A stretch of DNA of 48,647 nt from contig JAZNYU010000163.1 in the NCBI GenBank assembly GCA_045594605.1, positions 1 to 48,647 on the forward strand, given 5' to 3'. Numbering within the stretch: the stretch's first letter is position 1; each line of letters opens with the position of its first letter. The position numbers were made by a program, and so were the translations under genes. The notes beneath the pieces were generated by a model. It was given only the letters and a program-made list of their open reading frames with translations. It was not told the origin of the DNA and made no database searches. Positions 3,303 through 29,322 of the stretch are shown in pieces. This DNA comes from Eubacteriales bacterium (GTDB taxonomy: Bacteria > Bacillota > Clostridia > Oscillospirales > CAG-272).

Positions 3303-3323
3303 CAACGAAAAATGGAGAGCAAT

Positions 3324-4724: not shown

Positions 4725-4764
4725 TTTAGTTAGCAATAACAATAAATAAAAAAAGGAGAACATC

Positions 4765-6351: not shown

Positions 6352-6370
6352 TCCTTTTAAGGAGTAGAAT

Positions 6371-8196: not shown

Positions 8197-8197
8197 T

Positions 8198-9070: not shown

Positions 9071-9114
9071 TAAAACACCAAACACGACACAACGATAAGA
9101 ACAAAAGATTTGAA

Positions 9115-10719
9115 ATGAAAAAGATTAAATCACAAGTCATTATTTGCGGTGCCAGTCTTGGCGGCACTCTTGCGGCGTACAGTGCGGCAAGAGAAGGCAA
9201 AAACGTCGTTCTCCTTGAGAGCACGAAATGGATCGGCGGACAATTGACCTCGCAGGCAGTTCCGCCCGATGAGCATCCCTGGATCGAGGATCAGGGTGCT
9301 ACACAAAGCTATCGCGAATACAGAGAAAAGGTGCGCGCCTATTTTTGCAATCTGGAAGGCTTTTCGCAACAGGTCAAGGATTCCAAGCGCTTCTGCCCCG
9401 GCAACTCCGAGGTCAGCTGGCTCGCACACCCCCCAAAGCTCGCGCTTTCCATCCTTGAAGATATGCTGGCGCCTTACGTTGCGGCAGGCAATCTCAAAGT
9501 CTTTACCGAGGCGAAGCTGCTTGACTGCACCACACAAGGTGACGACATTGTAGGCGTGATCTACGAGATCGACGGCGAGGAGGTCCTGCTTGAGGGAGAA
9601 TACTACCTCGACGGAACCGATATTGGCGACCTGATCAAAAAGAGCGGCGCCGAATACCGCGTGGGCGCCGAGAGCCGAGAGGAAACGGGCGAGGTGGATG
9701 CTCCCCTTGTGGGCGACCCCGAAGATATGCAATCCTACATTTACTCGGCTTGCATTGAGAACCGCCGCGAGGGCGACTACACAATGGAAAAGCCAGAGCT
9801 CTACGATTATTTTGCGTCTATGGCAACGCCATACGATCCCGAGCGCAAGCTCTTCTCTATGATCGGTCCCGACTCCTCAAACGGCAAGGCAAAGCAGTTT
9901 GCTATGTTCCCCGGGGAGGTCATGGAAGATGGCACACATCCGTTCCCGCTCTTCCCGTACAGACGCATCGTTTATTCGGGTTATTACACCGACGGCAGCC
10001 AGCCCTATGACGTTACTCTTGTCAACTGGCCGCAAAACGATTTCTTTATGGGCAATCTCTTTGATTGTGAGGATGCGGAGCGCAACGACTATCTTGCAAA
10101 GCAATACACGCTCTCCTTCGTGTATTGGCTGCAAACCGAGGCACCGCGATACGACGGTGGCAAGGGGTATCCCTACTTCCGACTCGCGCCCGAATACGTG
10201 GGCACCGAGGACGGTCTTTCCATGGCTCCCTACATCAGAGAGTCCCGTCGCATCAAGGCAAAGGTCACCATTACCGAAAGTGACGTTTGCGATGCCGAGA
10301 GATGCCGTTTTCCCGATAGCGTAGGCGTAGGCAGCTATCCCATCGATCTGCACGTTACCCACAAAACGCACACGTTTATGTATCGCCCCACTTATCGGTT
10401 CACCATTCCGCTGGGTGCTATGATCCCCGAAAGAATGACAAACCTGATCCCCGCTTGCAAAAACATCGGTTCTACCCACCTCACAAACGGCTGCTACCGT
10501 CTCCACCCCGTGGAGTGGAACATCGGTGAGGTTGCGGGATATCTTGCCTCATTTGCAATCGACCGCGGCGTAACGCCCGCGCGCGTTTGGGAGGACAAGG
10601 AACTGTTTGCTTCCTTTGCAAAGCATATTGAGGAGAGAGGCATTCAAAGATATTGGAACGAAAAGCCCATCGAGGACGGCACATACGTTCGCCCCAATCC
10701 CAAAAAAGTATATTCCTGA
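9115..10719 (+). CDS. FAD-dependent oxidoreductase (FAD_oxidored, PF12831-like)
   Basis: N-terminal dinucleotide-binding fold VIICGASLGGTLAAYSAAREGKNVVLLE. 534 aa. Last gene of the sugar-transport cluster. Confidence 0.7.
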   Translation: MKKIKSQVIICGASLGGTLAAYSAAREGKNVVLLESTKWIGGQLTSQAVPPDEHPWIEDQGATQSYREYREKVRAYFCNLEGFSQQVKDSKRFCPGNSEVSWLAHPPKLALSILEDMLAPYVAAGNLKVFTEAKLLDCTTQGDDIVGVIYEIDGEEVLLEGEYYLDGTDIGDLIKKSGAEYRVGAESREETGEVDAPLVGDPEDMQSYIYSACIENRREGDYTMEKPELYDYFASMATPYDPERKLFSMIGPDSSNGKAKQFAMFPGEVMEDGTHPFPLFPYRRIVYSGYYTDGSQPYDVTLVNWPQNDFFMGNLFDCEDAERNDYLAKQYTLSFVYWLQTEAPRYDGGKGYPYFRLAPEYVGTEDGLSMAPYIRESRRIKAKVTITESDVCDAERCRFPDSVGVGSYPIDLHVTHKTHTFMYRPTYRFTIPLGAMIPERMTNLIPACKNIGSTHLTNGCYRLHPVEWNIGEVAGYLASFAIDRGVTPARVWEDKELFASFAKHIEERGIQRYWNEKPIEDGTYVRPNPKKVYS

Positions 10720-10897: not shown

Positions 10898-10948
10898 ATG
10901 ATTTTGCATATAAAAACTGTCATTTCAAAAGGAAGGGTAGAGGAAGGT

Positions 10949-12172
10949 ATGGAATATATCACCGTCAAGCAAGCAGCCGAAAAGTGGGGCGTTACACCTC
11001 GTCGCGTGCAGATCTTGTGCGCCGAGGAGCGGATCAAGGGGGCGTATCGCTTTGGCAGGTCCTGGATGATCCCCGTTCGTGCGGTGCTGCCGAATGCCAG
11101 AAAAAAAGAGGATGAGCCCACACTCCCCATGCCGCGCAAAAGCCCCTTTTTGGATATGACCAATCTTTACAACAGGGCGGGGGGCGCGGATGAGTGTCTG
11201 GAAATGCTTGTCAACAACCCCGAGGCATACGCGCTTTTTGAGGCGTCCATTGCTTATCGGCGCGGCGACATCAATAAGGTATATGACCACGCCCGATACT
11301 TTTTGAGCTCCCGTTCCGGCTTTTATGCCATTCTTGGCGGCGGCATGCTGCTGGCTTTTTGCGCAATGTGGCGCGGTGACATTGGTCTTTGGAACGAAGC
11401 CAAGCGACACATTCTGGAAGCGCCTCACACCACCGAGGAGGAGCGCGAGATCATCTCTCTTTCCTTGGCAATTATAGATAGCTCTGTGTACGATAACAAA
11501 GATTACCCCACGTGGTTCACAATTGGCAATTTTGAAGCACTGCCTGCCGATTCGCACCCCGCGGCAAAGGTTTTTTACGTCAAATACCTCTACATGGGGG
11601 CGTTTGCGCTGGCATCCAAGCAGATGTCCTTGGAGGGGGCTACGGGACTTTCCCTGATGCGTATGATCCCCAACACCATCGAGCCGCTTATCACACAAGC
11701 GGTGGTGGATAAGACCGTTTTGCCCGAGATCCTTTTGCGTATGTCCTGCGCGGTCGCCTACTACAACGGGGGCATGAAGGAGCAGGCGCTCGCGCACATC
11801 GACAAGGCCGTTGCACTGGCACTCAAGGATAGGCTCTACGGAACGCTGACCGAGTACGTCCGTCACTTCCACGGCTTGCTTGAGGAGCGGATCGCGCTGG
11901 TCGATCCCTCTGCCGTTGAGGTCATCAAGGCGTTGTATGCCACCTACAGCGTGGGCTGGTCAACACTTTCGGGCAAGATCCGCAACCGCTATATTGCCAC
12001 AAACCTGACCGAGCGCGAAAGGGAAGTGGCAAAGCTCACCGCCTTTGGCTTCAAGGCGCCCGAGATCGCCGCTATGCTTTACCTTTCCGAGTCCACCATC
12101 AAGCAGACCATCACAAGAGTCCTTAACAAAACGGGGCTGAGTGAAAAACGTGAGCTTTATTGCATCCTTTAA
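10949..12172 (+). CDS. LuxR-family transcriptional regulator with an additional N-terminal excisionase/MerR-type HTH
   Basis: Start chosen at ATG 10949 (GGAAGG just upstream) over the track start 10898, which has no RBS. N-terminus ITVKQAAEKWGVTPRRVQILCAEERIKGAYRFGRSWMIP. C-terminal LuxR/GerE HTH LTEREREVAKLTAFGFKAPEIAAMLYLSESTIKQTITRVLNKTG. Helical middle region. Confidence 0.8.
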   Translation: MEYITVKQAAEKWGVTPRRVQILCAEERIKGAYRFGRSWMIPVRAVLPNARKKEDEPTLPMPRKSPFLDMTNLYNRAGGADECLEMLVNNPEAYALFEASIAYRRGDINKVYDHARYFLSSRSGFYAILGGGMLLAFCAMWRGDIGLWNEAKRHILEAPHTTEEEREIISLSLAIIDSSVYDNKDYPTWFTIGNFEALPADSHPAAKVFYVKYLYMGAFALASKQMSLEGATGLSLMRMIPNTIEPLITQAVVDKTVLPEILLRMSCAVAYYNGGMKEQALAHIDKAVALALKDRLYGTLTEYVRHFHGLLEERIALVDPSAVEVIKALYATYSVGWSTLSGKIRNRYIATNLTEREREVAKLTAFGFKAPEIAAMLYLSESTIKQTITRVLNKTGLSEKRELYCIL

Positions 12173-12701: not shown

Positions 12702-15700
12702 ATGATGAGAAAAATGAACGTAAAGATGGCTATCCTCTCGCTTCTGATGGCAATGATCATGCTTGTGGGAGTGATTGCGGGAGCATCTAAAATGACAGAG
12801 GCCTCGGCGGCGGAGATTCCTGCTTTGCCCGCAACCGAGTACGTCTCTCCCCAAAGCCCCACACAGCCCGTCCCTTATGACGGCGTGCCCGTAACGCCGG
12901 GCAAGATCAGCTCCTCCAACTATCGCACCTACGGTCTTACCGACGATAATTGGAGTCAGTACAACGGCTACTATGCTATCCGCAACGCAAAAGAACTTTA
13001 CGGCTTTGCAGAGCTCGTCAGAGCAACGCAATCCCCTAAGCAAAACGCGGTGCTCCTTGCAGACATTGTAGTCAATACCGAGGTATCTTTGGAGAACGGT
13101 GCGACCTACACATGGACGCATATGGTCAAGAATCCCGGACATTCCGCATATATAGATGGCTATGGAGGCACCTTTGACGGGAACGGATATTCCATCAGCG
13201 GTATTTATTCTCCCAGCGAAAAAACAAACTGGGGAATTTTCGGTTCCATTTCGGGTACAGGCGTTGTGAAAAACCTCGTGCTGAAGAATTCTCTTTTCAC
13301 AGCATTTGGCTCTGCCGCCCCGATTGCAGGCTACAATTACGGCCTTGTAAGCTCCTGCAGAATCGAGAGCAGCGTTATGATCTATCGTGATAAGACCTCA
13401 GGATCTGGGGCGAGCGGCATTACCGAGATCAGACATACTACCGAAACGGTAGATGCAAGTAACCAGACCTTTACCGGCGGCATTGAAAATTGCTTTTCTA
13501 ACGTAACGTTTAACATCTTTAAAAATAATTACGCTAATTTGAATAACAGCGGTGTTATTACGGCAAAGATGCCAATTCGAACCAAAGTTAACAACAACTA
13601 CGGTATCGAATCCGACGGTTTCAGACTGATCGGAGAGCTTTCCACCGATGTGGAAGGGAAGTGGACCACGCTCAAAACACAAAACGACGCGCACACCTGT
13701 ATTCCCATCACCCACAATCAGGTAAACGGAACCTGTTATTCTTCCGGACTTTCCGCATATACCTTCTGTGCAGTGTGCGAAAAGGTCCTCTCGGGTGAGA
13801 AGACCGTTCTTTACGGTCACACCTCGGACGAATTTTTCTATACGCAAAACAAGAATGACGAGCTCAAGCACGATAAGAGATATCTGTGCTGCACCGAGAT
13901 CGCAGAAACCACAGACCACACCTACAGCAACGAAGCTTGCTCCCTTTGCGGCTACGAGATGTTTGCTCGCATGGGCGACTATGCTTCCACCAAAGCGAAA
14001 AATCTTGTTATCACCTCCGACGTAACGGTTGAGGGAGATGATCACCTCCATGTTTCGTCGGGATATACGCTTACAGTCAATCCCGGTGTCACCCTGACGG
14101 TAAACAGCAATCTGTATAATGCGGGTACCATTATAAACAACGGTGCCATTATTGTAAAAGGGGCTTACTCCGGTGAGGGAACCGTTACCTGTGGGGAAAC
14201 GGCTACCTATCACCCCGCATTTAACGAGAACGGCTTCTGTCAGTTCTGCGGCGATGAGGATCACCCCCAGGTAGCGCCTCTTGTTGACGGTTACTATCAG
14301 ATCGGCAATGCAGGCCAATTGATGTGGTTCTCGAACTTTGTGGGCGAGGGCAACACCTCTGCCAATGCAAAGCTGGTGGCTGACATCGTCTTCAACGAGG
14401 GCGACCTCTCCGGTCTTAACGGCAAGACCGAGGGTTACCGCTTCTGGACGCCCATCGGCATGATCATGAATCATGAAAACGGCGTTGACAGCTTTGTGAC
14501 CTACACCGGCACGTTTGACGGTGACGGACACTTTATCAGCGGTCTTTACCACTTTGATTATTGGTCTTATGACGGTTACGCAGGCCTCTTTTCCAAGCTT
14601 GGAGCAGGCGGCGTTATCAAGAACGTGACCGTTAAAAATTCTTATATTGCAACCAGCCGCTTGGCGGGCGCGATTCTCGGTGAAAACCGTGGCGGTACTG
14701 TTGAGAACTGTCACAACGTAAACACCACCGTCGCATCCGCGGCAAGAGTGGGTGGCATTGTTGGTAGCAACACAAGCGGTATCATTAAATACTGTACCAA
14801 CGACGGCAACGTAAAATTCTTTATGGTAAACCCCGATCTCGCCTTTGGCTTCACCGAGTTTGGCGGCATTGCAGGCAGTACTGCAGGCACAATTGAGTTT
14901 TGCACCAACTATAGTGATATCATCAGCGCTGATGAAATCGGCGACGTTGGTGGTATCAGCGGTCAGGTTTATCATGGCATTGTCAGAAACTGTGTAAACG
15001 AAGGTAACATCAACGTCACCGACGGCACAAACTTTGGCGGTATCACGGGTTATCAATATCACGGTACTCTTACACGCAATATCAACTACGGCACCATCAC
15101 AGGCAGTGGCAATCTTGTGGGCGGCGTTATCGGTAACCCCCTTGGCAACGGCGGCAGATATACGCACAACTATACCGTTGGTGGTAGCGCATGCGGCCCT
15201 GTCAGCCGTGACGGCTGCTACTCGATCACCGCGGCGGAGCTTGCAAACGGACGTCTTGCATTTGAGCTTGGCATCGGTCAGGAGATCGGCGTGGATGCTC
15301 GCCCCACTGTTGGCGGTCCTGCCGTATACGCATACTTTAACGAGAGCGGTGTTGTCAATTACACCAACGATGCAAATTACATCTGCTACCATGCAGGCGG
15401 AACGGCTACCTGTGATGCAAGAGCAGTGTGCGACGGATGCAGAAATCCTTACGGTGACATTCCGGAGGGCGCGCACCAGTTCGAGATCACCGGACGCGAG
15501 GATAAGCCCAACTGTACCGTTTGCGGAGGCAGATGCGGCGTAGTCGCTCCTCACAACACCAACTATACGGACTATTGCGCAGTATGCGGCGATTGGATCG
15601 GTCCCGAGCTCGCTGAAGACGGCTTCTACGAGATCAAGACCTTTGGTAACCTGATGTGGTTTGCAGAAGAGGTCAACGCAGGGAACTATGGACTCAACGC

Positions 15701-18700
15701 AAGACTGATGAAAAACATCGTGGCTACCGTAACCTTCAGAAGCTACGATTGGAAGCCCATCGGCGGCTCTTCCTTCGACGACACGAGCGTTGGCTACGAG
15801 GGTGTGTTTGACGGTCAAGGATACACCATTGCCTTGTTCCCTCAGGCTATGACTCCCGAGCATGACAACGCAGTGCTTGGTCTGTTCGGCACTCTGAAAT
15901 CGGGTGCTGTCGTTAAGAACCTTTCTATTTCTAACCGTCAGGATAATTACCTTTCCAGCAAGGGCACGACCTATTCCTATGACGGTGAGTACACGGTCTA
16001 CTTTGGCCTGATCGCGGGCAGAGTGCTGAGCGGCGCAACCGTTTCCGACTGTCGCGTTGCCAACGGCTCCGTCTCCATCTCCAACGGTACTCTGGGTGCC
16101 ATTGTCGGCATTAACTACGGCACGGTGAAAAACTGCGTTTCCTACGGCATGACGCTCACAGGCCCTGAGGGCAGAGTTGGCGGCATCGTGGGTGACTACA
16201 ACGGCGGAACGGTCGTCAACTGCTTCACCACCTACACAAGCATTGGCTCTACCGCAGAGGGATTCGTTGGTACTTCCACCGGCTCTGAGGCAGGCATCAG
16301 CGAGGCAAGAATGGCATCGGGCGAGATCACGCACAAGATGAATGTTTACGCAGGCGCGGATGTTTGGTACCAAGAGATCGGCATTGGCGGACCCTTGATG
16401 AATAGCGAGAGCGATTACGTTGGAAAGATCGTTTACCTGCACAACTTTGGCGCGATCACCCTCTACTCCAACAAAACAAATGAATTCACCCTTTTGCAAG
16501 ATTTTGAGATCAAGAGCGGAAAGACGCTTACCATTCCCCAAAAGATGACCCTGATCGTTCCCGAGGGCGTTACCTTGACAAACAACGGCACGCTCATCAA
16601 GAACGGTACGCTGAAGGGCGAGGGAACACTAGACGGTCTTGGCAACTTCTACATGACCGAGATCGATCGCGATCTGATTCCCACTATCGGCGACATCGTT
16701 TATGATGGCAACGATCACACCAATGACGTTGATATCGCCGTAAGCGCAGTATTCTCGGCATTGGGCAAGACCTTTACTCCAAAGGGATATACCTTCCATA
16801 AAAACTTTACAAACGTGAAGGATGCAGGATATTACGAGATCGGATACGTTTTGGGAGCCGAAGAATATCTTGTCAGATTTAACGTAACTCCCTTGGCGGT
16901 TTCCAATGACAATGTTTCTTTGGAATACACCGAGGTGTTCTACAATGGCACCGAGCAGCAACCCGTCGCTCTTCTTGCGGGATTTGAGGTCAGCCTTGGC
17001 AAGGACTATTATATAACCTATGAGAACAACAAATCTGCCGGCACGGCAACTGCAACAGTCACCTTCCGCGGCAACTTCTCGGGAGAGTTCACAAAAGAAT
17101 TCACCATCAAGTCTGTTGTCATCGGCACCGAAGCGATTGCCGAGGCACCCGAGAGCATCGTCTTCAGCGGTCTGGAGCTGGATCCTGTAACGATTACCGT
17201 TGATGGCGTTCGACTTGTTCGTGACGTAGACTACACCGTAACCTACGAGAACAACGTTTACCCCGGCACCGCTACGGCAACGGTGGTTGGTATCGGTTCG
17301 GTTTCGGGCGAGGCAAGCTTCACCTTTGAGATCACCAAGCCCGCCTTCACCGTTACCGTGCTCGATCAGATACTCCCCTACAACGAGGATATCAACGTCA
17401 AGCCCTTTGACCACACGATGTACGAGGGGGAGGGTCTTGTTGAAGGACATACCGTAGTACTCGGTGAGCCTTTGATTTCCGGCGATACCGATGAAATGAT
17501 CACTGTTCTGCAAATTCTGGATGCCAACGGCATTGACGTTCTGGAATATTACGACATCACCGTTCTTGCCACCGGCAAGTACCATATGTTCTATGATGCG
17601 TATGTTTGGGACAACGACGGTTATCACTGGCGCAATTGCGCATACAACTGCGACGAAAAGGCAGATTACGAGAAGCACCACGGCGGCGTTGTAAGCTGCT
17701 CCGAGGACGGTAGCTGCATTGACTGCGGTCTGACTTACCTCTTTGCTACGGGCGAGCACAACTACGTCAACGGTGTTTGCGGCTGCGGCTTCGATCCCGA
17801 GTTCGTATTTGTAGTAGATACCGACAACAACGGTCAGCACAGCGGCTCCGAGACCGGTTTTTCGGCAAACGGAATCCACAACATCTTCTACTATCCTGAC
17901 AATCAGTACGTGGTTGTAAAGGACTTTGCAGGCGATTTTTCCGGCGTGGGGCAGAATGACACCACCGTTATCCTTGACTTGCGCGGTCACACCATTGATA
18001 TGACCGATGCACTGTATCCCTTCTCCATGCAGGCACAAAACCTCGTTGTCATCTTTAAGAGCACGACAGAGGAAATGGGCGTTCTGATCGGAGCTACCCA
18101 ACTGGCAGTTGATTCTGTTACCTTTACACTCGATAACATTCGTCACGAGGGCACTCTCTACAATATGGGCACGATCCACGTTATCAACGGCTCGCTCCTG
18201 TATTCTGAGATCACCAACCGCGGCACCATCTATCTCCCCGAGGGATACGATCTTTCTACCTTTGTTTCCTACACGGGTAGCGGAACGCTTTACGTTGGCG
18301 AAAAGGCGTTTGTTTACAACGCCGAGAGCGGCAAGCTCGAGTGCGCATCCGATCACGATTGGGTAGATGCTGACTGCACGAACGCAAAGTATTGCTCCAT
18401 TTGTGAAAAGATCGACGGTGAGCCTCTCGGCCACAGCACAAGCGGCCCTGCAACCTGCGAAGAGGATGAGGTCTGCACAGTTTGCTCCGCTATCGTCAAC
18501 GAAAAGCTCGGTCACACCGAGGAAGAGATTCCCGCAGTTGAGCCCGGATGCGATACCGTCGGCTCTACTGTAGGCAGCAAATGCACAACCTGCGGCGAGT
18601 TTATCATCACTCCCGACGTGCTTCCCGCACGCGGACACACCGAGGCTTCTCCCGTGATCGAAAACGTGGTCAACAACGGTTGTGATGCTCCCGGCAGCTA

Positions 18701-21038
18701 CGAGGTCGTCGTTTACTGTACGGCATGCGATTACGTGTTCTCGAGAGAGACTATTCACACCGACGTGATCGGTCACAACGAGACCACCACAAGATACGAC
18801 TACAAGGACCCCACCTGCCAAGAGGAAGGCTACGTGGTTTACAGATACACCTGCACCGTGTGCGGTGAATACCGTGATAGCGAAAGAATCACCCTCGAGG
18901 CAACCGGTCACACCCCCGGTGAGTCCTATATCTCCAGCAGCATGGATCCTTCCTGCACGTATGAGGGATATGTTACAACCATCACGCCGTGCGCAAATTG
19001 CAGCGAGAACGTGGAAGAGAAGAAGGAGATCATTCCCAAACTTCCGCACACTCCCAACATCGATGCCCCCACTTGCACCCAAGAGCAGTCCTGCACGGTC
19101 TGCTACGCATTGATCGAGACCTTCGCTCCTCATGCCTACGTAGATACCGTAATCGAGGCACAGTGTCTTAACAGCGGTGGCATCCACCACGAATGCAGCC
19201 ATTGCGGCTCCAGCTATTTTGAGGTCACGCAAGAGGCGCTCGGTCACTCCTACAACATCGAGGCAGCTACCTGCGAGGAAGATAAGTATTGCCTGCGTTG
19301 CGACGTCATTGATGAATACGCAACCGGACACGAGGATGTTTGGGCAACCTGCACCACTCCTCACTACTGCGCTACCTGCGAAAAGGTCCTCTCTCCCGCT
19401 ACGGGACACGTCTTTAACGCAGAGGATGCTCCTACCTGCACAACCGAAAAATACTGTATCTCCTGCGGTCATGTAGAAGCAGAGGCACTCGGTCACGATC
19501 CCGATAAGGAAGCGCCCACCTGCGACGAGCCCGTATATTGCACAAGATGTCCTGCACTTCTGGAACATGCAATCGGCCATACCTATAACAATGAGGGCGG
19601 TGTTACCTGTACCGAGGATTACTACTGTACGACCTGTGGCGAAATATTCGGATACGCACGCGGACACGTACCGATGTTCGGTGACGTACAGTGCGAGGTC
19701 GACAACACCTGCATCAATTGCGGATTTGTAGTGGCGGAGGCAGCCGGTCACGCTTATGAGGCTGCAATACTCAGAGAGGTGAGCTGCCAAGCCGATGGTA
19801 TAATCTCTTACACCTGCCAAAGATGCTATTACTCCTACGAGGAATATCAGCCTCAACTGGAGCACGATCTCGTCAAGCAGGATGACGTTCCTTCTACCTG
19901 CACCCAGCAAGGACACACAGGCGCTACGGTCTGCTCTTTGTGCGGCCAGGTATTCGCTGCCGAAACAGTCCTGCCGTTTGCAGAGCACAAAGACCTTGAC
20001 GGCGACGAGCTTTGCGACGTGTGCGGCATTGACTTGAGTGTCGCTCATGATTGCGTGGACGGCGATAACAATCACAAATGCGACGTTTGCGATGCAACGC
20101 TTACCGTTCACGAGGTTACCGATGGCAAGCACACCTGCCTCTATTGCGGCGAGCGTGCAAGCGATTGCGAACAAAACGAATTTGGTTACTGTGACATCTG
20201 TCAGGTCAAGATCATCGGTCAAAGCGTTCACCTTAGCTCCGGCATCTCCATGCGCTACTTCGTTCAGGTGATCGATCCCAGCCTCATCGAAGGCAAGACT
20301 GTGACCATGGAATTCCACTTTATGGGCGACGTAAGAACCGTTGAGGGCGATTTCCTTAGTGAGACCTATATCCTGTTCTGCTTTGAGGGTATTGCTCCCG
20401 AGTATATGGGAGAGAACATCGATGCGTACCTCCTCATCGACGGTCAAAGAGTGGCTTCCAAGCTCTCCTACAGTGTTAAGACGAACCTGACCAATCTTCT
20501 TGCAAAGAATGCAAACGACGCGACATTGGTTCAACTGATCAACGATACCCTTGCTTACGGTGCGGCGGCACAAAAGGCAAAGAATTACAATGCAGATGCT
20601 CCCGTTACCGATGGCGTAGAGGGATTTGCACCTTCGCAAAACGTTCCCACCGAGCAAACGGTTGTTGAAAACAACACCGATGAGACGGCAAAGATCGAGT
20701 CCTATGAGGTCGTTGTAGGCAAGGTTGCTTACTTCCGCTTTGCCATCAAGCTTGCAACCTTTGATGGCATTACCATCCGCGTAAACGGAGAAGAGATCAG
20801 CCTTGACCACCTTGTTGTCAAGGGCGGCGGAGACTACGTGCTTTTGAGTGAGGGACTTATCATGGGTCTGGATTCTCCCGATTTCACCGTTGAGATCCTC
20901 AAGGACGGTGTCAGCGTTTCCAAGGTTGCAACCGGCATTGGCGCATTCGCCAATGAAGCGGCTTCGACCGAACAGAAGGATCTCATGCTTGCTATCTACA
21001 ATCTGCTGGCGTCGGCTCAAGCATATTTGTGGGGATAA
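12702..21038 (+). CDS. 2778-aa secreted giant surface protein: three GLUG-motif beta-helix-like regions, MBG/Ig-like repeats, long His/Cys module array, unassigned C-terminal domain
   Basis: RBS AGAAAGG at 12686-12692. Signal peptide MMRKMNVKMAILSLLMAMIMLVGVIAGASKMTEASA. The pattern Y(Y/F)xIxxxxxLxxF...FDGxG(Y/H)xISG(I/L)Y occurs three times, with GLUG-like GGIVG/GGIAG/GGISG/GGITG turns. YDGN / ITYENN...GTATATV MBG-like repeats. No LPXTG, SLH or C-terminal TM seen. Confidence 0.9.
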   Translation: MMRKMNVKMAILSLLMAMIMLVGVIAGASKMTEASAAEIPALPATEYVSPQSPTQPVPYDGVPVTPGKISSSNYRTYGLTDDNWSQYNGYYAIRNAKELYGFAELVRATQSPKQNAVLLADIVVNTEVSLENGATYTWTHMVKNPGHSAYIDGYGGTFDGNGYSISGIYSPSEKTNWGIFGSISGTGVVKNLVLKNSLFTAFGSAAPIAGYNYGLVSSCRIESSVMIYRDKTSGSGASGITEIRHTTETVDASNQTFTGGIENCFSNVTFNIFKNNYANLNNSGVITAKMPIRTKVNNNYGIESDGFRLIGELSTDVEGKWTTLKTQNDAHTCIPITHNQVNGTCYSSGLSAYTFCAVCEKVLSGEKTVLYGHTSDEFFYTQNKNDELKHDKRYLCCTEIAETTDHTYSNEACSLCGYEMFARMGDYASTKAKNLVITSDVTVEGDDHLHVSSGYTLTVNPGVTLTVNSNLYNAGTIINNGAIIVKGAYSGEGTVTCGETATYHPAFNENGFCQFCGDEDHPQVAPLVDGYYQIGNAGQLMWFSNFVGEGNTSANAKLVADIVFNEGDLSGLNGKTEGYRFWTPIGMIMNHENGVDSFVTYTGTFDGDGHFISGLYHFDYWSYDGYAGLFSKLGAGGVIKNVTVKNSYIATSRLAGAILGENRGGTVENCHNVNTTVASAARVGGIVGSNTSGIIKYCTNDGNVKFFMVNPDLAFGFTEFGGIAGSTAGTIEFCTNYSDIISADEIGDVGGISGQVYHGIVRNCVNEGNINVTDGTNFGGITGYQYHGTLTRNINYGTITGSGNLVGGVIGNPLGNGGRYTHNYTVGGSACGPVSRDGCYSITAAELANGRLAFELGIGQEIGVDARPTVGGPAVYAYFNESGVVNYTNDANYICYHAGGTATCDARAVCDGCRNPYGDIPEGAHQFEITGREDKPNCTVCGGRCGVVAPHNTNYTDYCAVCGDWIGPELAEDGFYEIKTFGNLMWFAEEVNAGNYGLNARLMKNIVATVTFRSYDWKPIGGSSFDDTSVGYEGVFDGQGYTIALFPQAMTPEHDNAVLGLFGTLKSGAVVKNLSISNRQDNYLSSKGTTYSYDGEYTVYFGLIAGRVLSGATVSDCRVANGSVSISNGTLGAIVGINYGTVKNCVSYGMTLTGPEGRVGGIVGDYNGGTVVNCFTTYTSIGSTAEGFVGTSTGSEAGISEARMASGEITHKMNVYAGADVWYQEIGIGGPLMNSESDYVGKIVYLHNFGAITLYSNKTNEFTLLQDFEIKSGKTLTIPQKMTLIVPEGVTLTNNGTLIKNGTLKGEGTLDGLGNFYMTEIDRDLIPTIGDIVYDGNDHTNDVDIAVSAVFSALGKTFTPKGYTFHKNFTNVKDAGYYEIGYVLGAEEYLVRFNVTPLAVSNDNVSLEYTEVFYNGTEQQPVALLAGFEVSLGKDYYITYENNKSAGTATATVTFRGNFSGEFTKEFTIKSVVIGTEAIAEAPESIVFSGLELDPVTITVDGVRLVRDVDYTVTYENNVYPGTATATVVGIGSVSGEASFTFEITKPAFTVTVLDQILPYNEDINVKPFDHTMYEGEGLVEGHTVVLGEPLISGDTDEMITVLQILDANGIDVLEYYDITVLATGKYHMFYDAYVWDNDGYHWRNCAYNCDEKADYEKHHGGVVSCSEDGSCIDCGLTYLFATGEHNYVNGVCGCGFDPEFVFVVDTDNNGQHSGSETGFSANGIHNIFYYPDNQYVVVKDFAGDFSGVGQNDTTVILDLRGHTIDMTDALYPFSMQAQNLVVIFKSTTEEMGVLIGATQLAVDSVTFTLDNIRHEGTLYNMGTIHVINGSLLYSEITNRGTIYLPEGYDLSTFVSYTGSGTLYVGEKAFVYNAESGKLECASDHDWVDADCTNAKYCSICEKIDGEPLGHSTSGPATCEEDEVCTVCSAIVNEKLGHTEEEIPAVEPGCDTVGSTVGSKCTTCGEFIITPDVLPARGHTEASPVIENVVNNGCDAPGSYEVVVYCTACDYVFSRETIHTDVIGHNETTTRYDYKDPTCQEEGYVVYRYTCTVCGEYRDSERITLEATGHTPGESYISSSMDPSCTYEGYVTTITPCANCSENVEEKKEIIPKLPHTPNIDAPTCTQEQSCTVCYALIETFAPHAYVDTVIEAQCLNSGGIHHECSHCGSSYFEVTQEALGHSYNIEAATCEEDKYCLRCDVIDEYATGHEDVWATCTTPHYCATCEKVLSPATGHVFNAEDAPTCTTEKYCISCGHVEAEALGHDPDKEAPTCDEPVYCTRCPALLEHAIGHTYNNEGGVTCTEDYYCTTCGEIFGYARGHVPMFGDVQCEVDNTCINCGFVVAEAAGHAYEAAILREVSCQADGIISYTCQRCYYSYEEYQPQLEHDLVKQDDVPSTCTQQGHTGATVCSLCGQVFAAETVLPFAEHKDLDGDELCDVCGIDLSVAHDCVDGDNNHKCDVCDATLTVHEVTDGKHTCLYCGERASDCEQNEFGYCDICQVKIIGQSVHLSSGISMRYFVQVIDPSLIEGKTVTMEFHFMGDVRTVEGDFLSETYILFCFEGIAPEYMGENIDAYLLIDGQRVASKLSYSVKTNLTNLLAKNANDATLVQLINDTLAYGAAAQKAKNYNADAPVTDGVEGFAPSQNVPTEQTVVENNTDETAKIESYEVVVGKVAYFRFAIKLATFDGITIRVNGEEISLDHLVVKGGGDYVLLSEGLIMGLDSPDFTVEILKDGVSVSKVATGIGAFANEAASTEQKDLMLAIYNLLASAQAYLWG
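18342..20201 (+). repeat. Protein-level array of about 20 His/Cys modules (C-x5-C-x2-C and C-x9-11-C-x2-C, mostly ending in GH) inside the giant gene
   Basis: Hand count of 20 CxxC motifs (CSIC, CTVC, CTTC, CTAC, CTVC, CANC, CTVC, CSHC, CLRC, CATC, CISC, CTRC, CTTC, CINC, CQRC, CSLC, CDVC, CDVC, CLYC, CDIC). Most are preceded by a single Cys at fixed spacing and flanked by (L/T/R)GH. Confidence 0.85.
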
Positions 21039-21050
21039 GAAAGGCTGAAG

Positions 21051-21093
21051 ATAGGCTGTCATTTTGACGGCAACCGTTTTGGTGACAGCCTAT
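21051..21093 (+). other. Intercistronic compound hairpin between the giant gene and the 304-aa lipoprotein gene
   Basis: ATAGGCTGTCA...TGACAGCCTAT with an inner ACGG-CAA-CCGT stem. No U-tract follows. Confidence 0.5.
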
Positions 21094-21131: not shown

Positions 21132-22046
21132 ATGAAAAAATCAATCTTAATACTTACATTTTCCATATTGATCGTTGCTTTGTGCGCCTTTCTCGGTTCT
21201 TGTAAGAGCGAGTGTGTTCACACGTATGACAACGCTTGCGACACCGCCTGCAACCTGTGTGGTGAAACTCGCGCGGTATCGCACGATATGACAGATGCGA
21301 CCTGCGACACCCCCGCCACCTGCAAGGTGTGCGGCAAAGCAGGGGATGCGGCGCTCGGCCACAAGTGGGCAGAGGCAACCTGCGAAAAGGCTGCAACCTG
21401 CAGAGCCTGCGGCAAAACCAACGGCGAAGCACTCGGTCACAAATGGACAGATGCAACCTGCACCACTCCCAAGACCTGCGGCACTTGCGGCGAGACCGAA
21501 GGCGAAGCACTTGGTCACAAATGGACAGATGCGACCTGCACCACTCCCAAGACCTGCGGTGTTTGTGGTGAGACCGAGGGCGAAGCACTCGGCCACAAGT
21601 GGGATAACGCAAGCTGCACCGCATCCAAGACCTGTGGCGTTTGCGGCGAGACCGAAGGCGCTGCGGCAGGGCACGATTGGGTAGATGCAACCTGTACCGC
21701 TCCCAAGACCTGTGATACTTGCGGCGAGACCGAAGGCGAAGCGCTTGGTCACGAGTGGACAGATGCTACCTGCACTGCTCCCAAGACCTGTGGCGTTTGC
21801 GGTGAGAGCGAGGGTGACGCACTGCCTCACACTCCCGATGCCGATGACGGCGACTGCACAACGGCTGTTCACTGTTCCGCCTGCGGCGACGTTCTGAAGA
21901 ACGCTACCGACGGACACATTGACTCCGATGAGAGCGGACTGTGTGACCGTGAGGGATGCAACCAAACGGTTGAATCCAGTATTGAAGAAGAAACCGAGCC
22001 CGGCAGTGGCGGCGGGTTCGACTTCCCAATGGATGAAAACCCCTAA
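21132..22046 (+). CDS. 304-aa lipoprotein consisting almost entirely of 26-aa His/Trp/Cys repeat modules
   Basis: RBS AAAGGTGAAAATATG. Lipobox CAFLGS-C. The module HKWTDATCTTPKTCGxCGETEGEALG is repeated. Acidic C-terminal tail. Confidence 0.85.
   Translation: MKKSILILTFSILIVALCAFLGSCKSECVHTYDNACDTACNLCGETRAVSHDMTDATCDTPATCKVCGKAGDAALGHKWAEATCEKAATCRACGKTNGEALGHKWTDATCTTPKTCGTCGETEGEALGHKWTDATCTTPKTCGVCGETEGEALGHKWDNASCTASKTCGVCGETEGAAAGHDWVDATCTAPKTCDTCGETEGEALGHEWTDATCTAPKTCGVCGESEGDALPHTPDADDGDCTTAVHCSACGDVLKNATDGHIDSDESGLCDREGCNQTVESSIEEETEPGSGGGFDFPMDENP
21282..21827 (+). repeat. 7 x 78-bp in-frame tandem repeat (26-aa module H-x-W-x3-C-x5-C-x2-C-G-x7-G)
   Basis: Unit starts (CAC His codons) are at 21360, 21438, 21516, 21594, 21672 and 21750, preceded by a more divergent unit at 21282. 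The period is exactly 78 bp. Confidence 0.9.
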
Positions 22047-22247: not shown

Positions 22248-23777
22248 ATGAAACAGCGTTATGCAGGAATTTTATTGCCAATTACCGCGTTGCCGTCTCC
22301 CTATGGGGTTGGAACACTTGGTGCGCAAGCAAGAAGCTTTGTCGATTTTCTTGTTCGTTCCAAGCAAACGGTTTGGCAAGTACTGCCTCTTGTGCCCACG
22401 GGCTACGGAGATTCTCCGTACGCTTCCTCGTGTGCCATTGCGGGCAGTCCCTACTTAATTGATATAGAAGAACTGATCGCTCGCGGCTTGCTGACAGAAA
22501 AAGAGGCAGAGGAGTATTCCTGTGCTCCCGAGGGAGAGCAGGTAGGACGTGTGAACTATGAGGCACTGTTCTATCGTCGCATTCCGCTTTTAAAGATCGC
22601 GTTTTCGCGCTTCGATTGCAACGATCCCGCCTTTAAGGCGTTCTTAGAAAAGGGCGAGTATGCCGATTTTGCCGCATTTATGGCAATCAAAGAGGCACAT
22701 GGCTGGCGCGCACTTTCCACTTGGGAAGAGAAGTATCGCACACGCGATGCAGCAGCGCTGGATGCCTTCCTTTCCAAAAACGCGGATGCGGTCCTGTTCT
22801 GGCAATTCACGCAATACGAGTTCTTCCGTCAATGGAAGGAGCTCAAGGACTATGCCAACGCACGCGGCGTTGAAATTATGGGTGATATGCCGCTTTACGT
22901 CTCCGAGGACAGTGCCGAGGTTTGGGCACATCCCGAGCTCTTCTTGCTCAACGGTGACGGCGCACCCACCGAGGTGGCAGGCGTTCCGCCCGATTACTTC
23001 AGCGAGGACGGTCAGCTTTGGGGCAACCCCCTCTACGATTGGGAAAAGATGAAAGCCGACGGCTACTCCTGGTGGACGGCAAGACTGCAAAAGGCACTTT
23101 CTATGTACGACATCGTACGCATCGACCACTTCCGCGGCTTCGACCGCTTCTACGCGATCCCCGCAGGCAGCAAGAATGCCAAGGTAGGGCGCTGGTGCGA
23201 CGGTCCCAAGGAATCTCTCTTTGAGGGCAAAAAGGATTGGAAGATCATTGCCGAGGACCTCGGTATTCTTGATGACGGCGTTTACCGCCTGATGCGCAAT
23301 GTGGGATACCCCCGCATGAAGGTTTTGGAGTTTGCATTTGACGGCAACCCCGAGCAGGAATTCAAGCCCTCGAACTATGAGAGCGACAACTGCGTCGTTT
23401 ACACCGGCACACATGACAATGCAACCTTTATTGAATTTTTGCAGGATCTTGATACCGATGCACGCGACGTGTTCTACAAGGATCTCGCATCCGAGTGCAA
23501 AAAGGGAAGAAAGCGCTTTGCTTACTGCTCCTGTCAGGTAAACGATCCCGAAACCATGCAACGTGCCCGCGAGGCAACGGTGCGCTTGGCATACGGTTGT
23601 TGCGCAAAATATGTGATCCTGCCTCTGCAGGATCTCCTTGGAACGGGCTCTGAATCCCGTATGAATACCCCCGGAACGCTCAGCGACCGCAACTGGAGCT
23701 GGCGCTATGAGAAAGAAAATCTTACGGGTGCGTTGGCACGCAAGCTGGCGCGTATGGTAAAAAAAGCAAACAGATAA
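22248..23777 (+). CDS. malQ: 4-alpha-glucanotransferase (amylomaltase, GH77)
   Basis: N-terminus RYAGILLPITALPSPYGVGTLGAQARSFVDFLVRSKQTVWQVLPLVPTGYGDSPY is characteristic of MalQ. ~509 aa. Confidence 0.9.
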   Translation: MKQRYAGILLPITALPSPYGVGTLGAQARSFVDFLVRSKQTVWQVLPLVPTGYGDSPYASSCAIAGSPYLIDIEELIARGLLTEKEAEEYSCAPEGEQVGRVNYEALFYRRIPLLKIAFSRFDCNDPAFKAFLEKGEYADFAAFMAIKEAHGWRALSTWEEKYRTRDAAALDAFLSKNADAVLFWQFTQYEFFRQWKELKDYANARGVEIMGDMPLYVSEDSAEVWAHPELFLLNGDGAPTEVAGVPPDYFSEDGQLWGNPLYDWEKMKADGYSWWTARLQKALSMYDIVRIDHFRGFDRFYAIPAGSKNAKVGRWCDGPKESLFEGKKDWKIIAEDLGILDDGVYRLMRNVGYPRMKVLEFAFDGNPEQEFKPSNYESDNCVVYTGTHDNATFIEFLQDLDTDARDVFYKDLASECKKGRKRFAYCSCQVNDPETMQRAREATVRLAYGCCAKYVILPLQDLLGTGSESRMNTPGTLSDRNWSWRYEKENLTGALARKLARMVKKANR

Positions 23778-23807
23778 TTCATCGCAAAGCAAAGGAACTT
23801 GATAACT

Positions 23808-26298: not shown

Positions 26299-29200
26299 TC
26301 AAGCGACGGGTTGGTAAACAACCTCGATAGCCATAACACGAACCTGCTTGCCGTTAGAACCATTCTTCACGGAGTTAAGAACTACGGAAGAACCGGAAAC
26401 AGTAATGGAGGTATTGCAGATATCGGTAGTAGTGCCATCAACATAGAGGAAAGCATAGGTGCCGGTTGCGGTAGTAATCTTAATGGAAACCAGCTCATAA
26501 CCATCTGCAACACTAATCGTAATGGTTCCTGCAGGAGAGTCGGTAGCATAAATACGAATATGGTCGCCATTGTATGCCTTACCGGTGTTGGAGCCGCCAT
26601 TGATCTTAACACTTACGTTTTCATCAAGATTGAATGTTTGCTTTGTGGTGGAGGATGTCCAACCATATTCGGTAATCAGATCTGCAACAGTCTTGCTTGC
26701 AGTAATGGTCTCTACGCCTTGAATTGCGCCGCAAGAGCAAACGCCGTTAACATAGGTATGATCAATGGGTTCGCCAACTACTGCGCCGCAAACTTTGCAT
26801 GTAGCTGCCTCGGTGCAGGTTGCTTCGGTGAAGTTCGAGCAGGTGTGTGTGCCGGTGATTTCAGCAGTTGCGCCTGCTGCAATTTGGCGAGCACCACTAT
26901 AAGTGTCCATCGAACCTACAACGGTGATAACATCGTTCAAGCTAACCTTAGTGGAAAGTCTGAAGAGGTAAAGAGAAGTGCCGTTTTCATCGGTGATGGT
27001 AACAGAGATGTTATTGTATTGATCACTCCAAGCGGTGTTGATCTTGGTGACGGTACCTGTTACACGAACCATTGTGCCATCTTCAGCTTCGAGTGCTTCA
27101 GAAATCGTGTAGTCGTAAATAACATCATAGCTTGCATCGTGACCGGTAACGGTAGCGGTTGCACCTTGTGCAATTTGTCTGTTGCCATTGTAGGTAGCCA
27201 TAGTACCTTCAATGGTAACGATATCACCAAGGGCAACGTTAGTTGCAAGTCTGTAGATGTAAAGCTCGTCGCCGTTTTCATCGATGACGGTAACAGTAAT
27301 GTTCTTGTAGGTGGTATTCCAAGCGGTGTTGATTTCGGAAACGGTACCGCTGATGGAAACCTTTTTGCCATCCACAGCTTCGAGAGCTTCGGAAATAGTC
27401 ATTTCAAAGTAGTGGTTGGGATCGTCCTTGCCGCAGGTTTCGCAAACGTAATCAACGTAACTGTGGCCGAGAGCAGCGATTTCTTCTTGCTCTACAAGGG
27501 TTTGTTCACAAACGGAGCAGTAAGAACCGTCGGTAAGACCGTCTTCGGTGCAGGTAGCTGCCTTGCCGGGAACAACAACTGTGGTGTGTCCGAAAGCAGG
27601 GATCTCAACATAGGTGGTGTAGTTGCAACGGGTGCAAGCTTCGTATGCTTCGTGACCAGCCTCGGTGCAGGTAGGAGCCTTTGCTTCGTATGTTACTTTA
27701 TCGTGGCCGAGAGCGGGAACTACTTCTTGAGCGGTAAGGATATCGCCGCAAACAGAGCACTTAACACCAGCGGTAAGACCGGTTTCGGTGCAAGTGGGAG
27801 CAACTGCGGGAATTTCTTCTTCGGTGTGACCAAGAGCGGGGATTTCTTGATAGGTGGAGAAATCGCAACGAGTGCACTTTACGTACATATTGTGGCCTGC
27901 TTCTGTGCAAGTAGGATCCTTCTTAGGATGGATCGTAGAAGTATCATGGCCGAGAGCGAGGACGATTTCCTGTTCTACGAAGATCTTGCCACAAACGGAG
28001 CAGTGCTCGCCGGCAGTAAGACCTGTCGTTGTACAAGTAGGCTCTACAGCTGCAAGAGGTGCGTGAGTGTGGTCAATAACGGGAGTTTCTTGTTGTGCTA
28101 CGAGAACTTCGCCGCAAACGGAGCAGTGCTTACCTTCGGTAAGACCTGTCTTGGTGCAGGTAGCGGGAACTGCTGCGTCAATAGCCTCTGTATGTCCGGT
28201 AGCAGGAACGGTTTGTTGTGCTACTTTACCTACGGAGCAACGAGTGCAGTGTCTACCCTCTGTAAGACCGGTTTCGGTACAGGTAGGAGCAACAGCCTCA
28301 TCAATTACGAAATCGTGACCGAGCGGGAGGATCATCTCTTTCTTTACGATGACTTCACCACAAACGGAGCAGTAGGAATGCTTGTTATAACCGGGAGTAG
28401 TACAGGTAGCAAGCTTCATCTTTACTTCAACAACGGTGTGACCAAGAGCCTCAACGGTTTCTTGTGCTACGAAAACTTCGCCACAAGCGGAGCAGTGAGA
28501 GCCTTCGGTAAGACCGGTTTCGGTACAAGTGGGAGCTACAGCTGCATCAACAACGGTGGTGTGACCGAGAGCTGCAACAACTTCCTGTTCCTTGGTGGTT
28601 ACGCCACAAACGGAGCAGTAAGCGCCTTCGGTAAGACCGGCTTCGGTGCAGGTGGGAGCTACGGCGTCAACAACAACGTTGGTGTGGCCGTTTGCAGGAA
28701 TGGTTTGGGGAGCTGCAAGAACCTTGCCACAGTCAAGGCAGTATTCGCCTGCGGTAACACCTTCGGTGGTGCAGGTGGGTTCTACTGCTACAACGGTGTA
28801 GGTAGTGTGGCCGTGAGCCTTAACGGGGGTTTGTGCGATGATAACAGTCTCGCAAACAGAGCAGTGAACGCCTTCGCTGAGACCGTCTTCGGTGCAGGTG
28901 GGCTCTACGGGAGCGTCAACAACGACGGTGTGGCCGAGAGCGGGAACCTTTTCTTGTGCAAGCAGAGTCTTGTTGCAAACCGAGCAGTGAACGCCTGCAG
29001 TCAGGCCCTTTTCGGTGCAAGTGGGAGCTACAGCTGCATCAACAGCCTCGGTGTGGCCGAGTGCTTCGATTACTTCTTGTGCTACGAGAACTTCTTTGCA
29101 CCTGGAGCAATGTTGGCCTTCGGTACGACCGGATTTTGTACAAGTGGGAGCAATTGCTTCATCAACCACAGGAATGTGGCTGCATTTCAGCGGGTTGTTT

Positions 29201-29322
29201 CCTTCGGGACCCCAGATGCTGACGGGGGGGATATCTTCAAAGAGGATATCGCACGATGCCAGTGTCAGCAGAATCAGTGCCGTAAGGGATGCCAAAACGA
29301 GTAATTTGAGAATCTTTTTCAT
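26299..29322 (-). CDS. 1007-aa surface lipoprotein: 14 x 41-aa His/Cys modules, two OB-fold-like domains, one short Cys module, unassigned C-terminal domain
   Basis: RBS GGAGGG. Lipobox LLTLAS-C. Modules such as HTEAVDAAVAPTCTEKGLTAGVHCSVCNKTLLAQEKVPALG. Duplicated segment TISEALEA.DG..V...GTV..INTAW...Y.NI.VT..DENG..LY..RL.T.V.L.D..T..G.M.TY.G.RQIA.GATA. Confidence 0.85.
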   Translation of the reverse strand: MKKILKLLVLASLTALILLTLASCDILFEDIPPVSIWGPEGNNPLKCSHIPVVDEAIAPTCTKSGRTEGQHCSRCKEVLVAQEVIEALGHTEAVDAAVAPTCTEKGLTAGVHCSVCNKTLLAQEKVPALGHTVVVDAPVEPTCTEDGLSEGVHCSVCETVIIAQTPVKAHGHTTYTVVAVEPTCTTEGVTAGEYCLDCGKVLAAPQTIPANGHTNVVVDAVAPTCTEAGLTEGAYCSVCGVTTKEQEVVAALGHTTVVDAAVAPTCTETGLTEGSHCSACGEVFVAQETVEALGHTVVEVKMKLATCTTPGYNKHSYCSVCGEVIVKKEMILPLGHDFVIDEAVAPTCTETGLTEGRHCTRCSVGKVAQQTVPATGHTEAIDAAVPATCTKTGLTEGKHCSVCGEVLVAQQETPVIDHTHAPLAAVEPTCTTTGLTAGEHCSVCGKIFVEQEIVLALGHDTSTIHPKKDPTCTEAGHNMYVKCTRCDFSTYQEIPALGHTEEEIPAVAPTCTETGLTAGVKCSVCGDILTAQEVVPALGHDKVTYEAKAPTCTEAGHEAYEACTRCNYTTYVEIPAFGHTTVVVPGKAATCTEDGLTDGSYCSVCEQTLVEQEEIAALGHSYVDYVCETCGKDDPNHYFEMTISEALEAVDGKKVSISGTVSEINTAWNTTYKNITVTVIDENGDELYIYRLATNVALGDIVTIEGTMATYNGNRQIAQGATATVTGHDASYDVIYDYTISEALEAEDGTMVRVTGTVTKINTAWSDQYNNISVTITDENGTSLYLFRLSTKVSLNDVITVVGSMDTYSGARQIAAGATAEITGTHTCSNFTEATCTEAATCKVCGAVVGEPIDHTYVNGVCSCGAIQGVETITASKTVADLITEYGWTSSTTKQTFNLDENVSVKINGGSNTGKAYNGDHIRIYATDSPAGTITISVADGYELVSIKITTATGTYAFLYVDGTTTDICNTSITVSGSSVVLNSVKNGSNGKQVRVMAIEVVYQPVA
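27463..29178 (-). repeat. 14 tandem His/Cys modules (12 of exactly 41 aa / 123 bp, one of 40 and one of 39 aa)
   Basis: Module residues are H1, C13, C24, C27 and G41, counted by hand from His49 to His620. The boundary codons CAC at 29176-29178 and 27463-27465 were verified on the sequence. Confidence 0.85.

Follow-up and report, generated by a model that had tools for sequence, protein, structure and literature searches.

What a long run of regularly spaced cysteines does in a secreted protein is the question raised by the DNA analysed here, a stretch of 48,647 nucleotides (contig JAZNYU010000163.1, hereafter the window). The run lies in a giant protein of 2778 residues, most likely adhesin-like, from an uncultured Eubacteriales bacterium of the gut. 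Sequence comparison places it as an ordinary, modest-sized member of a very large module family that is absent from Pfam and NCBIfam. We propose that residues 1881–2425 probably constitute a tandem array of 16 extracellular zinc-binding (Cys3His) modules that forms a rigid stalk. Zinc as the ligand, together with the rigidity, length and stalk role of the array, is what we infer from the module grammar, the homology to this huge family and to ZBD1 and ZBD2, the putative zinc-binding domains of a published IgA protease (IgAse), a confident all-beta structure prediction, the selective conservation of Cys and an anchor-proximal placement.

Nucleotides 18342–20201, corresponding to residues 1881–2500, encode 59 of the 98 cysteines of the protein, giving a Cys content of 9.5% (59/620) versus 1.8% in the remaining protein. 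An earlier note on this DNA had counted 20 CxxC motifs by hand, 16 of them in complete modules, and our count gave exactly the same numbers. In the complete modules, a third Cys is found 5 (nine cases) or 9–11 (seven cases) residues upstream of the CxxC, and a His, usually preceded by Gly, 9–15 residues downstream, yielding the full grammar H-x6-12-C-x5/9-11-C-x2-C-x9-15-(G)H. The nine short modules follow H-x6-12-C-x5-C-x2-C-x9-(G)H with a period of ~28 residues, and the seven long modules C-x9-11-C-x2-C-x12-15-(G)H with a period of ~35–46 residues; along the array, the spacings between the first two Cys (C1–C2) read 5, 5, 10, 11, 11, 11, 5, 9, 5, 5, 5, 5, 5, 5, 9 and 10. The last four CxxC motifs (residues 2438–2500) are irregular, Asp-rich and cap-like. 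As a null model, the segment's own residues were shuffled 5000 times with the Cys content kept. The shuffles gave 5.5 ± 2.1 CxxC versus the 20 observed, and none of them reached 20. The observed 9 C-x5-C-x2-C, 10 CxxC-x9-10-H and 14 Gly-His (GH) motifs likewise compare with 0.5, 0.5 and 2.1, and no shuffle equalled any of these counts. Moreover, module hidden Markov models (HMMs) built from homologues alone, with the window left out, again found all 16 modules where the motif count had put them, 9 of them short and 7 long. Six short modules lie at residues 2182–2350, and of the four long modules at residues 1938–2114 three score strongly on the long-module HMM and one (residues 1994–2016) weakly.

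Aligning the short-module profile to the long-module profile with hhalign gave a probability of 94.8% and an E-value of 5.5e-8, which indicates one and the same module in two lengths. That the formats are interchangeable, as previously noticed within this single polypeptide, turned out to be a general property of the family, since both of them occur together in half of the 149 top-scoring family proteins. In the module alignments of both formats, the first His, the three Cys and the final His are invariant. Both flanking His are kept in 78%–85% of the first, last and isolated modules, against ~7% expected by chance. As this holds even for isolated modules (78%), the complete unit is H-C-C-C-H.

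We then compared the array with public sequence data. Pfam, applied at E ≤ 10 to the whole giant protein and to nine segments separately, returned only Glug and a sub-threshold L32p match (E 0.13), leaving the array, residues 1331–1640 and the C-terminal 273 residues empty, and NCBIfam gave zero matches to the protein. In agreement with the earlier note, no domain family of either database covers 18342–20201; the published counterpart is the predicted ZBD1/ZBD2 of IgAse. Single-sequence searches of the Protein Data Bank (PDB) with the array, with GLUG unit 2 and with residues 1331–1880 yielded nothing useful. A word-indexed search with the array found at least 2519 proteins at E ≤ 1e-3, mostly 'hypothetical proteins' of 26%–36% identity from uncultured Clostridia, Oscillospiraceae and Erysipelotrichaceae. 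A profile of a 211-residue piece of the array (A2) was scored against 1.84 billion representatives of 50%-identity clusters and matched 75,613 of them at E ≤ 1e-3, 45,432 at E ≤ 1e-10 and 15,448 at E ≤ 1e-30. The best matches are proteins 1.3–7.6 thousand residues long. Among the top 149 family proteins, 84% possess a signal-like N-terminus, and the number of strict modules has a median of 28 and a maximum of 83; the window array, with 16–20 modules, falls below this median. The best 120 homologues contain 1756 CxxC motifs, with a C1–C2 spacing of x5 in 348 and of x9–11 in 1204, and Gly precedes His in 1154 of their ~1600 modules. Domains co-occurring with the modules comprise cohesin, dockerin, SLH, BspA-type leucine-rich repeats, Flg_new, Big_2, CAP and transglutaminase, and the Pfam models of zf-BED and zinc ribbons match the homologues in part, either below threshold or cumulatively.

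A single array in one window changes little; the gap is at the level of the family. At least 15,000 (E ≤ 1e-30) and up to ~75,000 (E ≤ 1e-3) clusters carry a repeat that neither Pfam nor NCBIfam models, for the most part in secreted giants made by Clostridia of gut and rumen, and the module family may be among the largest repeat families still missing in curated databases. With a curated model, a sizeable share of the surface proteins now listed as 'hypothetical' in these Clostridia would gain an annotation. The combination of domains in the giant protein had earlier been called unusual, a view that does not hold against a module family of at least 75,613 clusters with many other heads and anchors and a counterpart in IgAse.

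A link to published work came from the PDB sequences, where the A2 profile matched residues 849–981 of 9qa6_A ('IgA protease'; E 1.9e-7) over three consecutive modules, and the long-module profile A4 matched the same chain at E 1.2e-5. The matched stretch scores 34.4 bits versus at most 10.1 bits in 2000 composition-matched shuffles. This chain is the Thomasclavelia ramosa IgAse (igalysin, UniProt Q9AES2, PDB 9qa6; PLoS Pathog 2025, PMC12237041), in which ZBD1 (residues 879–1008) and ZBD2 (residues 1101–1171) are described, from AlphaFold3 models only, as 'putative zinc-binding domains' (PMC12237041). ZBD1 is elongated, ~110 Å per 129 residues, and the ZBD subdomains are up-and-down sheets of three strands, bounded at G934/H935 and H968; the predicted tetrahedral Zn sites at the subdomain interfaces are made of 2His+2Cys and, in one case, 3Cys+1His, and to the authors subdomain I distantly resembles the zinc domain of TFIIS (PMC12237041). 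Disulfides are absent throughout IgAse in both the experimental and the predicted structures, the protein needs a reducing agent to stay monodisperse, and the ZBDs are dispensable for catalysis and substrate recognition (PMC12237041).

The window array shares with ZBD1/ZBD2 the sequence homology, the H...C...CxxC...GH grammar and the G-H boundaries, as well as, in its predicted long modules, the three-stranded up-and-down sheets. It also shares an extracellular location C-terminal to functional domains and N-terminal to an anchor. The setting is that of a monoderm (Bacillota) surface, as for the IgAse ZBDs, given the signal peptide and the origin of the orthologues from metagenome-assembled genomes (MAGs) of Eubacteriales and Clostridia. 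On the other hand, IgAse possesses 3+2 degenerate modules, mostly 2His+2Cys with the first Cys replaced, with a beta-barrel domain between the two groups and a sortase signal behind them, whereas the window displays 16 Cys3His modules of two lengths in one run, four caps and no sortase signal. By homology, the window modules are the canonical Cys3His version of the IgAse ZBD unit. In the literature on cysteine-rich repeats, zinc ribbons, cohesin/dockerin and Cys3His sites, the repeat turned up only in the paper behind PDB 9qa6. ZBD1/ZBD2, themselves predicted zinc-binding domains, are the only published relatives.

To view the module fold, an AlphaFold2 (AF2) model of residues 2030–2240, comprising two long, one intermediate and three short modules, was computed from a 41-row alignment and read as confidence scores and a DSSP string. 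The mean predicted local distance difference test score (pLDDT) is 94.9, and 200 of the 211 residues score 90 or more; every 10-residue block, module junctions included, reaches at least 89, the final single residue excepted. DSSP assigned beta structure only, with strands around C1 and the CxxC turn. In the model, a long module consists of three strands (before C1, between C1 and C2, and after C3; for instance, query residues 47–52, 60–68 and 74–82), a short module forms a hairpin of two strands that turns at the CxxC, and the module boundaries fall at GH. A Foldseek search of the model against the PDB found nothing at E ≤ 0.001, the best match having E 0.17 and all TM-scores lying below 0.25. 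Its noise-level matches include the G5 rods of Aap (4fum, 4fuo and 5tu7; E 0.36–1.4, TM-score 0.09–0.23), which therefore provide no significant similarity to the Aap/SasG G5 fold.

Conservation separates the cysteines from the rest of the array. An exact look-up of the giant protein in public assemblies gave no record. Among species-representative genomes, three loci proved orthologous: L002 from a faecal Eubacteriales MAG (74% identity, 2713 residues), L003 from a Clostridia MAG of yak colon (62% identity, at least 2738 residues) and L004 from a Eubacteriales MAG (61% identity, 2992 residues). The window, L002 and L003 show one and the same succession of module formats. The array itself is only 59%, 51% and 37% identical in L002, L003 and L004, respectively, versus 70%–98% for GLUG units 2 and 3 with the module region that separates them (77%–89% for unit 2), and the head units reach 73%–98% in L002 and L003; only the divergent cap and the C-terminal tail are less conserved. 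Against this background, 49 of the 49 Cys of the regular array are kept in both L002 and L003, together with 18 of the 24 His. Selection thus seems to act mainly on the Cys ligands, which, at the sequence level, is the signature of a scaffold constrained little beyond its metal ligands. As all three orthologues are intact, the giant gene is not a pseudogene; the interruption or decay that the earlier note had considered was seen neither in its open reading frame (ORF) nor in those of the orthologues.

On this basis we propose a putative model of the array. The CxxC would sit in the last turn as a zinc knuckle, with the first Cys in the loop before it and the G-H at the boundary to the next module. 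The three Cys and one boundary His of each module would then hold one structural Zn2+ at or near the module interface. These zinc sites would staple the chain into a stiff rod of ~40–60 nm for residues 1881–2425, a length extrapolated from the IgAse ZBD1 model (110 Å per 129 residues, ~0.85 Å per residue). The rod may serve as a stalk or spacer that holds the N-terminal GLUG/beta-helix 'head' off the envelope of a strictly anaerobic gut Eubacteriales bacterium, the metal replacing the hydrophobic cores, isopeptide bonds or disulfides of Ig, FN3 and EGF stalks. Finding the same arrays on many different heads and anchors is expected of such a generic spacer. If zinc binding is true, a metal-stapled stalk would be a common surface-display design in anaerobes, and a notable extracellular zinc demand would be implied.

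Several observations weigh against this proposal. Giant members of the family carry modules dispersed along the whole chain, so that the anchor-proximal stalk is one arrangement among others. The pTM of the AF2 model is only 0.54, a value expected for an elongated chain. With both flanking His kept, either the preceding or the following one may be the ligand. The ZBDs of IgAse are AI-predicted and experimentally unresolved (PMC12237041), and small-angle X-ray scattering of IgAse shows flexible linkers among ZBD1, BB8 and ZBD2 (PMC12237041), which, with the low pTM, makes the overall rigidity uncertain.

Known zinc and stalk modules resemble the window module in part. Classical zinc ribbons and rubredoxin-type knuckles (the TFIIS C-terminal domain, L32/L37ae, Zn_Ribbon_1 and zf-BED) share the CxxC knuckle at a hairpin turn. 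However, zinc ribbons have two CxxC/CxxH knuckles, and the window module has one CxxC, a lone Cys and a His; their fingers are single, intracellular and nucleic-acid-binding, in contrast to the extracellular modules of the window family, which number up to 83 per protein in the examined matches. No significant whole-model match to a zinc ribbon was found, and the PDB profile matches to rubredoxin and L32/L37ae have E-values of at least 0.08. The G5-E of Aap/SasG, Rib and Big/FN3 stalks of Gram-positive surface proteins and the EGF-like arrays of eukaryotes share with the window array the tandem arrangement of small beta modules between a head and an envelope anchor, and the G5-E rods, which bind Zn, are built as elongated beta-sheets of a single layer. 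Nevertheless, these stalk repeats display no sequence similarity and no significant structural similarity to the window array (Foldseek E ≥ 0.17, TM-score < 0.25), and they are stabilised by a hydrophobic core, an isopeptide bond or a disulfide rather than by the Cys3His metal site proposed here.

Among the alternatives, the modules might themselves be functional ligand-binding units, either adhesive (towards host or dietary glycans or proteins), metal-capturing, or pairing in a Zn-dependent manner like the 'zinc zipper' of Aap G5-E. Avidity or pairing could account for up to 83 modules per protein and for three module genes within 17 kb, as well as for an anchorless giant protein standing beside a module-only lipoprotein in both the window and L004. 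The elongated Zn-dependent Aap G5 rods also appear in the Foldseek output, but with the non-significant scores given above. Moreover, the non-ligand surfaces of the modules drift among the orthologues (37%–59% identity), which is atypical of a specific binding surface, the arrays are joined to many unrelated heads, and the ZBDs of IgAse are dispensable for substrate recognition (PMC12237041). We therefore regard a binding role as unlikely, though probable enough to count against the stalk. Disulfides or other covalent cross-links, as in EGF-like repeats, would suit a Cys-rich region of a secreted protein, and the polydispersity of IgAse in the absence of reducing agent indicates reactive thiols (PMC12237041). 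Yet no disulfide was observed in any IgAse structure, experimental or predicted (PMC12237041), the hosts are strict gut anaerobes, and the CxxC is predicted in a beta-turn, the classical position of a zinc knuckle. The module has an odd number of Cys, three, with a co-conserved His. EGF-like repeats, by comparison, have an even number, typically six, paired in disulfides, and the window module thus does not appear to fall in the EGF-like or disulfide-rich class. Cross-linking is accordingly quite improbable.

A redox or electron-transfer wire, built from rubredoxin-like Fe sites or haem for extracellular electron transfer, has in its favour weak profile matches in the knuckle region to rubredoxins (E 0.08–0.8) and to CxxCH regions of nitrite reductase (E 0.4–4). 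These matches are not significant and cover the knuckle only, each module has one CxxC and no Cys4 site, and no cytochrome maturation or redox genes lie nearby; such a wire is very improbable and was rejected. A multihaem c-type cytochrome was likewise rejected, as the 2778-residue protein contains 0 CxxCH. Finally, a compositional accident or a gene in decay is refuted by the tests made: we found nothing in its favour, 0 of 5000 shuffles matched the counts, independent HMMs find the modules, and the ORF and its three orthologues are intact with the module order kept.

Returning to the zinc-stapled stalk, we asked where arrays lie relative to membrane anchors. A linker rich in Pro, Thr and Glu and then a C-terminal transmembrane (TM) helix come after the array in L002 and L003, as they do in P0001, the nearest homologue from metagenomes. 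Across 269 family proteins used for placement statistics, the first module of those with a lipobox (n=51) lies at a median of 76 residues from the N-terminus, and the last module of those with a C-terminal TM helix (n=56) at a median of 110 residues from the C-terminus. Arrays thus tend to adjoin the membrane anchor, whichever end of the protein it occupies, and diverse functional domains lie at the opposite end, an arrangement that supports a role as spacer or stalk.

No classical anchor is visible in the giant protein of the window. A scan for TM segments and motifs over the whole protein detected no LPXTG and no C-terminal TM helix, the sole TM-like segment being the N-terminal signal peptide (residues 4–30), and Pfam gave no SLH or CWB match, all as the earlier note had stated. 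Anchoring by sortase (LPXTG) and anchoring by a C-terminal TM helix were therefore both rejected for this protein. Three module-bearing genes occur within 17 kb of the window, and the adjacent downstream gene encodes a 304-residue lipoprotein built of modules, whose tail ends in FDFPMDENP (D-x-PMDEN). Its orthologue was found only in L004, the sole orthologous locus whose giant protein has the C-terminal domain (52% identity); there it carries the same LGSC lipobox and the tail DLPMDEND. L002 has the TM anchor and no adjacent orthologue of the lipoprotein; L003 has the TM anchor as well, and its contig stops at the giant gene, with the downstream neighbour out of view. This distribution suggests two alternative anchoring solutions, a TM helix or a lipoprotein as possible tether. 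Speculatively, the tether might operate through recognition of the D-x-PMDEN tail by the orphan C-terminal domain or through Zn-bridged pairing of modules. Docking of the C-terminal domain on the neighbouring lipoprotein is weakened by the copies of this domain at L005 and L006, which have no such neighbour. The joint reading, in which a new metal-stapled extracellular fold is an anaerobe's substitute for stalks stabilised by disulfides or isopeptide bonds, the anchorless giant protein is tethered by a module-only lipoprotein and a TM helix takes over in the orthologues, remains doubtful in our estimate.

The C-terminal domain (residues 2506–2778) measures ~273 residues, shorter than the 360 given before. 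Only two close homologues were found among 5.8e9 proteins. The closest match, P0121 (JGI, 427 residues), is 89% identical over ~195 residues and has an unrelated N-terminal half; it looks like an assembly or gene-call chimera and was excluded from the architectural evidence. A metagenome scan located distant copies (33%–36% identity) at the ends of module-free secreted proteins in L005 (57–2204, 716 residues) and L006 (502–6849, 2116 residues), and by this placement the domain is a mobile C-terminal unit. The two distant copies share the motif L-x-D-[TI]-L-A-Y-G-A-[EA]-A-Q-K. AF2 of the domain from a three-sequence alignment gave a pLDDT of 51, which is unusable for a fold search.

The third module gene of the window encodes a 1007-residue lipoprotein with 15 long modules right behind the lipobox, followed by two OB-fold-like repeats (weak PF01336), one short module and a C-terminal domain without assignment. 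This lipoprotein may bind nucleic acids or glycans while displayed at the surface on a stalk of modules.

The remaining layout of the giant protein agrees only in part with its first description (Table 1). Of the three GLUG regions described there, unit 2 passes the Pfam cutoff, unit 3 stays below it at 16.5 bits, and unit 1 has no Pfam Glug match. The isolated modules reported between these regions are present, and all three are positionally kept in all three orthologues. The MBG-type label of residues 1331–1640 found no Pfam match at E ≤ 10. A profile scan with hmmscan had been expected to return GLUG and MBG-type hits and nothing over 18342–20201 and 20220–21035; the Glug match and the two empty regions were obtained, and the MBG match was not. 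The array had also been placed between MBG repeats and the C-terminal domain. The C-terminal domain does follow it, but on the N-terminal side an isolated module and a 180-residue region without assignment (residues 1641–1880) intervene. The cap motif at the end of the array, H-x-D-x-(D/N)-x-D-x2-C-D-x-C, resembles the Asp cluster of a calcium loop fused to a CxxC, and it also closes the arrays of P0001, P0003, L002, L003 and both lipoproteins of the window.

Table 1. Features of the giant gene and of the other genes of interest in the window (residue numbers refer to the giant protein)
Feature	Position	Strand	Evidence or remark
HTH_17 + GerE/LuxR-type regulator, upstream of giant gene	10898..12172	+	Pfam
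Giant-protein gene	12702..21038	+	uninterrupted ORF, 2778 residues, secreted
Isolated long module, residues 338–373, H-x6-C-x10-C-x2-C-x13-H	13713..13820	+	long-module HMM 7.3 bits; spacing same in 3/3 orthologues
GLUG-containing beta-helix-like unit 2, residues 531–900	14292..15401	+	Pfam Glug E 2.6e-7, 31 bits vs cutoff 20.5
Isolated short module, residues 897–925, H-x6-C-x5-C-x2-C-x11-H	15390..15476	+	followed by irregular CxxC motifs to residue 962
GLUG-like unit 3, residues 966–1330	15597..16691	+	Pfam Glug E 0.011, 16.5 bits, sub-threshold
Repeat region, residues 1331–1640, MBG-like by eye only	16692..17621	+	no Pfam match at E ≤ 10, no PDB sequence match
Isolated short module, residues 1660–1686, HH-x4-C-x5-C-x2-C-x10-H	17679..17759	+	motif; positionally kept in orthologues
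Regular module array, 16 modules, residues 1881–2425	18342..19976	+	motif counts, shuffles, homologue HMMs, AF2
Four irregular Asp-rich CxxC cap units, residues 2426–2505, junction to C-terminal domain	19977..20216	+	motif of H-x-D-x-D/N-x-D-x2-C-D-x-C type
C-terminal domain without assignment, residues 2506–2778 (~273 residues)	20217..21035	+	no Pfam match
304-residue lipoprotein (LGSC lipobox), adjacent downstream	21132..22046	+	8 short modules (26 residues each) + cap + acidic tail
1007-residue lipoprotein (LASC lipobox)	26299..29322	-	long-module HMM E 7e-159, 15 domains

Upstream of the giant gene, the HTH_17 and GerE/LuxR-type regulator is 80%–94% identical to proteins encoded at the same position in L002 (8247–9473), L003 (5525–6760) and L004 (8239–9462), compared with 61%–74% for the giant protein, and is a candidate for a dedicated regulator of the giant gene. 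The flanks (523–10719 and 22248–26117) encode a Bact_surface_Ig-like protein, a NAGPA phosphodiester glycosidase, two ABC permeases, an FAD oxidoreductase, a GH77 4-alpha-glucanotransferase and a glycogen phosphorylase. Given these ordinary chromosomal genes, the locus is chromosomal rather than part of a phage or plasmid. Between the stop codon of the giant gene and the gene of the 304-residue lipoprotein, a 9-bp perfect inverted repeat, AGGCTGTCA ... TGACAGCCT, with a 21-nt loop and without a clear T-run, is located at ~21053–21091; it may act as a hairpin for attenuation or mark a processing site.

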